Made by a program: the position numbers and the translations under genes. A stretch of DNA of 64,000 bases. Source: Escherichia coli (lineage in GTDB: Bacteria; Pseudomonadota; Gammaproteobacteria; Enterobacterales; Enterobacteriaceae). Within the stretch, counting starts at the first letter, position 1. Every line of letters starts with the position of its first letter. The DNA is taken from assembly GCF_003018255.1 (NCBI RefSeq), contig NZ_CP027440.1; one strand, written 5' to 3'. Under the pieces are notes generated by a model. The model worked only from the letters and a program-made list of their open reading frames with translations. It was not told where the DNA came from and did not search any database. Positions 47,496 to 47,568 of the stretch are shown in pieces.

Positions 47496-47524
47496 AAGGA
47501 CTCCTTGATTTATTATGTAACATG

Positions 47525-47568
47525 CATTACAAAACTGTTTTAACTTTCTGTCAACAAGTTTTGTAATG
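47525..47568. promoter_or_regulatory. 11-bp perfect inverted repeat in the bdcA/bdcR divergent region (candidate BdcR operator)
   Basis: CATTACAAAAC-(22 bp)-GTTTTGTAATG; right arm overlaps the bdcR ATG. An adjacent TGTAA-catgca-TTACA palindrome lies at 47516-47531. Confidence 0.45.

Follow-up and report, generated by a model that had tools for sequence, protein, structure and literature searches.

The divergent gene pair bdcA–bdcR of Escherichia coli lies within a stretch of 64,000 nucleotides (assembly GCF_003018255.1, contig NZ_CP027440.1; hereafter the window). Its 70-bp intergenic region (47496–47565) carries a long inverted repeat, which a first-pass annotation of the sequence had proposed as the expected place for operators of BdcR, the TetR-family regulator of the pair. 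We find that the conserved elements of this region are two separate palindromes, O1 and O2, the predicted repressor sites of an ordinary TetR-type switch. The long-range repeat is E. coli-specific and represents the upper tail of two good copies of one half-site; it has no function of its own, and no extra selection is needed to explain it. As in CifR and TetR, BdcR dimers probably bind to O1 and O2 and repress both genes.

As the first-pass annotation had stated, CATTACAAAAC (47525–47535) and GTTTTGTAATG (47558–47568) are exact reverse complements, and the right arm overlaps the bdcR ATG (47566–47568). In the window the match grows to 12 bp (CATTACAAAACT at 47525–47536 and AGTTTTGTAATG at 47557–47568, with a 20-nt spacer). 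Both A (the window, 54 of 82 E. coli-like loci) and G (K-12, 28 of the 82) occur at 47557, the innermost base of the right arm, which falls in the outer flank of O2; with G the repeat measures 11 bp and not 12. The K-12 intergenic region is otherwise the same as that of the window. Three loci in the window have a perfect inverted repeat with arms of 12 bp or longer and no more than 40 bp between them, where 100 block shuffles gave 0.16 on average; for 11 bp the numbers are five and 0.55. The inverted repeat exceeds chance.

Each arm has a partner half-site of its own 11 bp away, TGTAA at 47516–47520 for O1 and CTAAA at 47573–47577 for O2. The palindrome TGTAA-N6-TTACA at 47516–47531, present as claimed and called "additional" at the time, is operator O1 itself. 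The right arm amounts to no more than the left half of O2, whose partner half lies inside the bdcR coding sequence and beyond the coordinates then considered. The left arm begins with the final two spacer bases of O1 and continues through its right half-site into an A-tract flank. The right arm runs from the T-tract flank of O2 through its left half-site to the first two bases of the spacer, with which the ATG is complete. The 11/12-bp repeat arises because the two inward halves (O1 right and O2 left) both match the extended half-site GTTTTGTAAT. The earlier proposal had thus pointed to the right place, and both arms belong to the predicted operators; the 11-22-11 repeat did not hold up as the recognition unit.

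The evidence for the two operators comes from the BdcR family. The homologues form two groups, an E. coli-like one (~81–97% identical among full-coverage hits) and another of at most ~63% identity from alpha-, beta- and gamma-proteobacteria, with almost no relatives between ~81% and 63%. They carry PF00440 (the TetR-type helix-turn-helix), matches in the PDB are to TetR-family chains only, and JGI gives many members the name "repressor for divergent bdcA". When 35 members were aligned, the invariant residues were G47, I48, P50, P51, S52, Y54, A56, F57 and K60, together with G11, R12, P13 and R14 of the N-terminal arm; the invariant helix-turn-helix reads GINPPS(F/L)YAAFGSK. Since the DNA-reading residues are invariant, the operator should be common to the whole family. 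A scan of genome contigs with the BdcR protein used 8-residue patterns that proved too stringent and gave two E. coli-like loci only, and a scan of metagenome contigs with the family alignment retained 80 loci, all of them 95–98% identical E. coli variants, which serve population variation only. Distant loci were obtained by a tblastn search of plasmids and from contigs found to encode relatives. Of 24 fetched, 23 were distinct; the records are plasmids, chromids and assemblies (several of them from metagenomes) from the three classes, and include Roseomonas, Roseinatronobacter, Neorhizobium, Klebsiella, a Salmonella plasmid, Pantoea, Variovorax, Aureimonas, Rhizobium, Paraburkholderia, Sinorhizobium, Citrobacter, Raoultella, Microvirga, Jiella, Castellaniella and Sphingobium. 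The regulators in these loci are ~47–63% identical to BdcR or to each other, by protein alignment or tblastn.

Two palindromes of the form TGTAR-N6-YTACA, with half-site centres 11 bp apart and A/T-tract flanks, are found in all 23 distant loci and in E. coli. Their start-to-start distance is 44–50 bp across the family (46 bp in E. coli). The sites are symmetric, and they are conserved together with the regulator across proteobacterial classes. A 237-residue bdcA-type SDR lies divergent from the regulator in 20 of the 21 gene-called loci, with 53–88 bp between the called genes; in the exception (L092) the neighbour is an EthD-family gene, and both palindromes are still present. Throughout the family the O1 right half (YTACA and the next A/T bases) forms both −10 elements, as TGTAGT or TGTAAT on the other strand for bdcA and as TACAAT, TACATA or TACAAA for bdcR. 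A conserved GTCAAGG, which holds the bdcA −35 (TTGAC), sits between the two palindromes, and O2 spans the start codon of the regulator. Conservation in orthologous regions, which had been suggested as a check on the proposed operators, is seen for the two local palindromes, kept in 23 of 23 other loci, and not for the arm-to-arm repeat.

Matches to at least nine of the ten pattern positions number 40 in 3,105 regulatory positions, compared to 4 among the 69,140 positions outside them in these loci. O1 is a 10/10 match, the sole such match in the window, and O2 a 9/10 match. A symmetrised 26-bp operator matrix was trained on the 23 non-E. coli loci only (consensus ATTTTTGTAGTGATCACTACAAAAAT; training sites score 19.6–32.6 bits). 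When it was run over the 64-kb window, O2 came first (28.4 bits) and O1 second (24.9 bits), with the third match at 9.4 bits. The features of the region are collected in Table 1.

Table 1. Features of the bdcA–bdcR region, in window coordinates
Feature	Position	Strand	Basis or remark
bdcA coding sequence incl. stop, SDR oxidoreductase	46782..47495	-	open reading frame list; E. coli annotation
bdcA Shine-Dalgarno GGAG	complement of 47501-47504	-	
bdcR -35 TTGATT	47505..47510	+	PMC3946193; Reg-Seq strongly negative information at -34 to -31
O1 core TGTAA-CATGCA-TTACA	47516..47531 (extended 26-bp 47511-47536)	.	pattern, matrix, family, Reg-Seq
NsrR-type 11-bp half-site AACATGCATTA, inside O1	47519..47529	+	11.8 bits
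Left arm CATTACAAAACT	47525..47536	.	O1 right half-site and A-tract flank
bdcA -10 TGTAAT, the O1 right half-site	47526..47531	-	PMC3946193; PMC12825309 supplement construct
bdcR -10 TACAAA, inside O1 right half	47528..47533	+	PMC3946193; PMC12825309 supplement; Reg-Seq
bdcA -35 TTGACA	47549..47554	-	PMC3946193; family-conserved as GTCAAGG on + strand
Right arm AGTTTTGTAATG	47557..47568	.	O2 T-tract flank and left half-site; holds bdcR ATG
O2 core TGTAA-TGGTCA-CTAAA	47562..47577 (extended 47557-47582)	.	pattern, matrix, family
bdcR coding sequence incl. stop, TetR/AcrR-family regulator	47566..48159	+	open reading frame list; E. coli annotation; family alignment

Composition and codon choice indicate that the constraint on the O1–O2 stretch acts on the DNA and not on the protein. 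This stretch has 26–42% GC in the family loci, compared to 50–73% GC for the bodies of bdcR. The N-terminal Thr-Thr-Lys of the family is specified as ACT ACA AAA by the O2 right half (window 47573–47581; loci L083–L107). The threonine codons there are ACT or ACA in 35 cases and ACC or ACG in 5, compared to 54 and 150, respectively, in the rest of bdcR, and the preference holds even in genes of 60–73% GC. Pantoea has its entire O2 in front of the ATG, where it is non-coding, and the site is conserved there as well. The operator thus appears to limit the first codons of its own regulator. Variation within Escherichia is consistent with the same constraint. Across 82 loci, 4 of the 70 intergenic sites vary, compared to ~33% of third codon positions, and the 11-bp arms are changed in only 1 of the 82 E. 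coli-like loci. One locus (L002) carries 110 differences over bdcA and bdcR, and none of them falls in 47496–47582.

The operators are superimposed on a compact pair of promoters, bdcA with TTGACA-17-TGTAAT and bdcR with TTGATT-17-TACAAA (Shimada et al., PMC3946193). The pair has since served as a model bidirectional promoter, from which RNA polymerase alone transcribes two divergent RNAs in vitro (PMC12825309, 2026). Transcription start sites are at ~47518 for bdcA and ~47540–47542 for bdcR (47542 in the construct of PMC12825309), as inferred from the marked segments of that construct, in which the text formatting was lost. The −10 assignments make the left arm the overlapping −10 region of both promoters. 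This overlap, and that of the same arm with a published NsrR site discussed below, had gone unmentioned in the first-pass annotation. O1 extends from −26 to −11 relative to the bdcR start and from +3 to −13 relative to the bdcA start, and it overlies both −10 hexamers as well as the site where bdcA transcription starts. O2 extends from +21 to +36 of bdcR and from −44 to −59 of bdcA, and spans the bdcR ATG and codons 2–4 (V-T-K). The right arm occupies positions of about +16 to +27 in the bdcR transcript and, seen from bdcA, lies immediately upstream of the −35. On the far side of O1, the family-conserved CTCCTTGA block (47501–47510) places the bdcA Shine-Dalgarno on the minus strand directly beside the TTGA of the bdcR −35 on the plus strand. 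This block and the operators account in part for the near-invariance of the intergenic region in E. coli, in which nearly every base is part of a Shine-Dalgarno, a −35, a −10, a transcription start, an operator or a start codon. A consensus promoter and terminator scan of the locus gave no match; its rule needs an A at the second position of the −10, which in bdcA is TGTAAT.

A repressor footprint has been published for one of these promoters. Reg-Seq reported a single repressor site at the bdcR promoter, from −27 to −4, and labelled it NsrR (PMC7567609). The label rests on a "known binding location (Partridge et al., 2009)", hence on location only, with no knockout or mass spectrometry. We took the footprint and the repressor matrix, which represent one growth condition, from the supplement of the same paper and calibrated position 0 to 47539 ± 1 bp in two independent ways. 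Firstly, the negative signals at −34 to −31 and −11 to −8 correspond to TTGA of the −35 and TACA of the −10, with the positive values at −7 and −6 corresponding to the non-consensus last bases of TACAAA. Secondly, rows 92–95 of the Reg-Seq matrix read TGTA. The published site maps to 47512–47535 on this scale. Its positive, repressor-like information, at −23 to −20, corresponds to TGTA at 47516–47519, the left half of O1, where mutations raise expression. Thus, some repressor acts on the left half of O1 in vivo. The Reg-Seq matrix reads T.TGTA[G/T]C over 47514–47521, with G or T favoured at 47520 and C at 47521. The family consensus at 47520 is G, where E. coli has A, and the matrix favours the family base.

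Among the other readings, the one that fares best, although we consider it unlikely, is that NsrR and not BdcR acts at the left arm and O1, that both promoters respond to nitric oxide, and that the palindrome is incidental. We built an NsrR matrix from the published CFT073 sites, and with it the half-site AACATGCATTA (47519–47529) scores above the training median of 10.3 bits and ranks 12th in the window. When the bdcA/bdcR region is read as an 11-1-11 NsrR site (AAGATGCATTT-N-AAATGCATCTT), the 23-mer scores 9.9 bits, lower than every training site (minimum 13.1). The positive footprint is also mostly outside the NsrR 11-mer: T, G and T at 47516–47518 precede it, and only A47519 is its first base. 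At 47520 and 47521 the NsrR consensus is A and G, unlike the G/T and C preferred by the Reg-Seq matrix. Within the single growth condition and a calibration uncertainty of ~1 bp, the base preferences of NsrR do not match the Reg-Seq footprint at O1. Across the family, the ATGCA spacer occurs in only 4 of 24 O1 sites, whereas TGTAR/YTACA is universal, and neither O2 nor the family-wide conservation is explained by NsrR alone. The CFT073 NsrR paper, based on chromatin immunoprecipitation sequencing (ChIP-seq), does not list yjgI, yjgJ, bdcA or bdcR by name, in a strain that may lack the locus. These comparisons suggest that the footprint fits the BdcR-family half-site better than NsrR. Binding of the two proteins at O1 may not be mutually exclusive, and both may bind.

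A canonical NsrR operator is present elsewhere in the window. Upstream of ytfE (open reading frame 6498–7160, minus strand), positions 7187–7209 form a perfect 11-1-11 palindrome, AAGATGCATTT-T-AAATGCATCTT, which scores 31.6 bits with the NsrR matrix, far above any score at bdcA/bdcR.

Could the arm-spacer-arm repeat itself be the functional unit, one operator that is recognised in its entirety, for example by a tetramer bridging the arms, or through DNA looping or cruciform extrusion? Its 12-bp perfect arms are statistically unusual and nearly invariant in E. coli. The family comparison nevertheless led us to reject it as an operator, and we consider a functional role of this kind very unlikely. 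Arm-to-arm identity in the other 23 loci is only 6–10 of 12 positions, with a longest perfect match of 3–9 bp, whereas the local palindromes are kept in all loci. The 11-bp distance from each arm to its own partner is the spacing expected for a single TetR-family dimer. Calculated from the column frequencies of the family, 11/11 identity of the arms has p ~0.013 per locus, so that ~0.3 such cases are expected in 24 loci (~0.08 for 12/12) and no extra selection is required. Moreover, the bdcA −35 and the bdcR transcription start lie in the spacer, which differs in length by 6 bp among the family loci.

Pairing of the arms in RNA, whether as a hairpin hiding the bdcR start codon or as a terminator or attenuator, is more improbable still. 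Were both arms transcribed, they would form a hairpin of −14.4 kcal/mol (z = −3.5) that includes the AUG. The bdcR transcript, however, starts downstream of the left arm, and the bdcA transcript heads away from both arms, so that neither primary transcript holds both. The bdcR leader as actually transcribed has unusually little structure (−1.6 kcal/mol, z = +1.8), complementarity between the arms is not kept across the family, and the locus has no Rfam match and no terminator-like site. The hairpin was rejected on the start-site positions, the lack of conservation and the lack of an Rfam match. Lastly, it is hardly credible that the symmetry is promoter architecture only, with TGTAAT/ATTACA as −10-like hexamers and no dedicated repressor site: the left arm is exactly the overlapping −10 region, RNA polymerase suffices for divergent transcription in vitro (PMC12825309) and TGTAAT recurs in the right arm, but the O1 left half and the whole of O2 coincide with no promoter element and are conserved like the −10, O2 is kept inside a coding sequence against codon bias, and the rise in expression upon mutation of the O1 left half (Reg-Seq) is the behaviour of a repressor and not of RNA polymerase.

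We infer that BdcR is the protein bound at the two sites. The 70-bp region would then operate as a compact back-to-back sigma-70 promoter under two palindromic operators, with one BdcR dimer on O1 and one on O2. The dimer on O1 would exclude RNA polymerase from both promoters. The dimer on O2 would act as a roadblock to bdcR transcription at the bdcR start codon and would also fill the UP-element position upstream of the bdcA promoter. BdcR would be released by a putative ligand, plausibly one related to the compound that the BdcA reductase acts on. Ma and colleagues are said to have found in 2011 that deletion of bdcR raises bdcA transcription.

Several observations weigh against this assignment. 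The authors of Reg-Seq attribute the footprint over O1 to NsrR, for which O1 contains a good half-site. The Reg-Seq values at O2 in the one growth condition, +0.0006 to +0.0007 at +21 and +24, are at noise level, as background peaks reach 0.0009. The O1 right half is the −10 of both promoters, and a part of its conservation may be due to RNA polymerase. The matrix is not fully independent of E. coli, as four of the training loci (L099–L101 and L105) have an O2 closely similar to that of E. coli. The O1–O2 spacing, which varies from 44 to 50 bp, gives no fixed helical phasing in support of cooperative binding. The literature that we searched contains no mapped BdcR site, motif, footprint or electrophoretic mobility shift assay, with BdcR present in E. 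coli transcription-factor lists only, and a ChIP-seq compendium that included yjgJ produced no usable model for YjgJ.

The comparative data nonetheless give a 26-bp consensus and two exact predicted BdcR sites, which can be checked experimentally. As far as our literature search reached, an operator of the BdcR family seems not to have been described before. The results also suggest that the published NsrR assignment at the bdcR promoter needs a knockout control. With O2, the locus offers a clear example in which an operator restricts the N-terminal codons of the regulator that it serves. It is otherwise an ordinary two-operator switch, and the general picture of TetR-family switches is unchanged. 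A broader proposal, in which the NsrR-labelled footprint reflects BdcR autorepression through O1 or a site shared by NsrR and BdcR, the gene pair is a mobile cassette, and O2 fixes the N-terminal Thr-Thr-Lys of the family, is tentative, and we rate it at slightly under an even chance. If it is true, a shared O1 would put bdcA under the control of both nitric oxide and the BdcR ligand, and the bdcAR cassette would carry a complete ~70-bp regulatory region (a bidirectional promoter and two operators) across proteobacterial classes.

A segment of 501 bases that surrounds the repeat matches 4,770 of 5,426 complete E. coli genomes at 95–99.8% identity, and the matching records annotate the pair as bdcA (SDR oxidoreductase) and bdcR (TetR/AcrR regulator). 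The bdcA product matches the NCBIfam equivalog PRK12742 with 483 bits, and its start codon (CAT at 47493–47495 on the strand shown) agrees with the K-12 annotation. The bdcA–bdcR locus (46782–48159) is missing from 656 of the 5,426 genomes, and relatives are often found on plasmids or chromids. The pair looks like a horizontally mobile two-gene cassette with its own regulatory region.

Two further perfect inverted repeats of at least 12 bp are present in the window, at 44379–44412 and 54188–54211. One of this set is AAAAGTCTGGCTC... with an 8–10-nt loop, and the other is a 24-bp palindrome, AAGGCCGGAGCA followed directly by TGCTCCGGCCTT. They may be terminators or elements of the repetitive extragenic palindromic type. 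An open reading frame at 48879–49625 (plus strand, 248 residues) carries in its C-terminal part a series of pentapeptide repeats that are nearly identical, LNN[SI/L]Q[ED/K], beginning QKLNNLQKLNNIQELNNSQELNNSQDLNDSQ....

The system can be placed beside three known ones. The NsrR half-site targets of E. coli, defined by the 11-bp motif AANATGCATTT (PMC7567609, PMC5320621), resemble O1 in the 11-bp match that it contains. They differ in that O1 has one NsrR half-site only, and in that the TGTAR/YTACA symmetry, which occurs twice at bdcA–bdcR, is unrelated to the NsrR motif; it accompanies the TetR-family regulator in taxa and replicons far from E. coli.

By sequence, the closest relatives of BdcR with a solved structure are 2i10, an uncharacterised TetR protein of Rhodococcus, and then CifR of Pseudomonas aeruginosa (E 7e-18; PDB 6NSN, 6NSM and 6NSR). 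CifR shares with BdcR the GRPR N-terminal arm, the two recognition-helix prolines, the tyrosine and the lysine. It binds two operators of inverted orientation in the divergent cifR–morB intergenic region, with one dimer per 23–27-bp site; its two prolines reach deepest into the major groove, and the narrow, AT-rich minor groove at either outer end is read by an arginine near the N-terminus (PMC10827105). The BdcR sites likewise have a central core with T/A-tract flanks outside it, and minor-groove reading of the CifR type would account for the run of the arms into CAAAAC and GTTTTG. The residue aligned with Arg6 of CifR is arginine in most family members, whereas it is proline in E. coli BdcR. 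The CifR operators, compared here by their description, are weakly palindromic and unlike each other, whereas the BdcR-family sites are clear TGTA/TACA palindromes. The ligands of CifR are epoxides.

The tet system of Tn10 has two palindromic operators, tetO1 and tetO2, between the divergent tetA and tetR, each for one TetR dimer. The likeness to bdcA–bdcR is in the two one-dimer palindromes, the short divergent region and the overlapping promoters, and Tn10 TetR, as proposed here for BdcR, controls its own gene together with the divergent target. The tetO sequence is different, and the two tet operators are ~30 bp apart from centre to centre, compared to 46 bp for O1 and O2. Unlike the tet operators, O2 enters the coding sequence of the regulator, and O1 coincides with the shared −10 of a back-to-back promoter.

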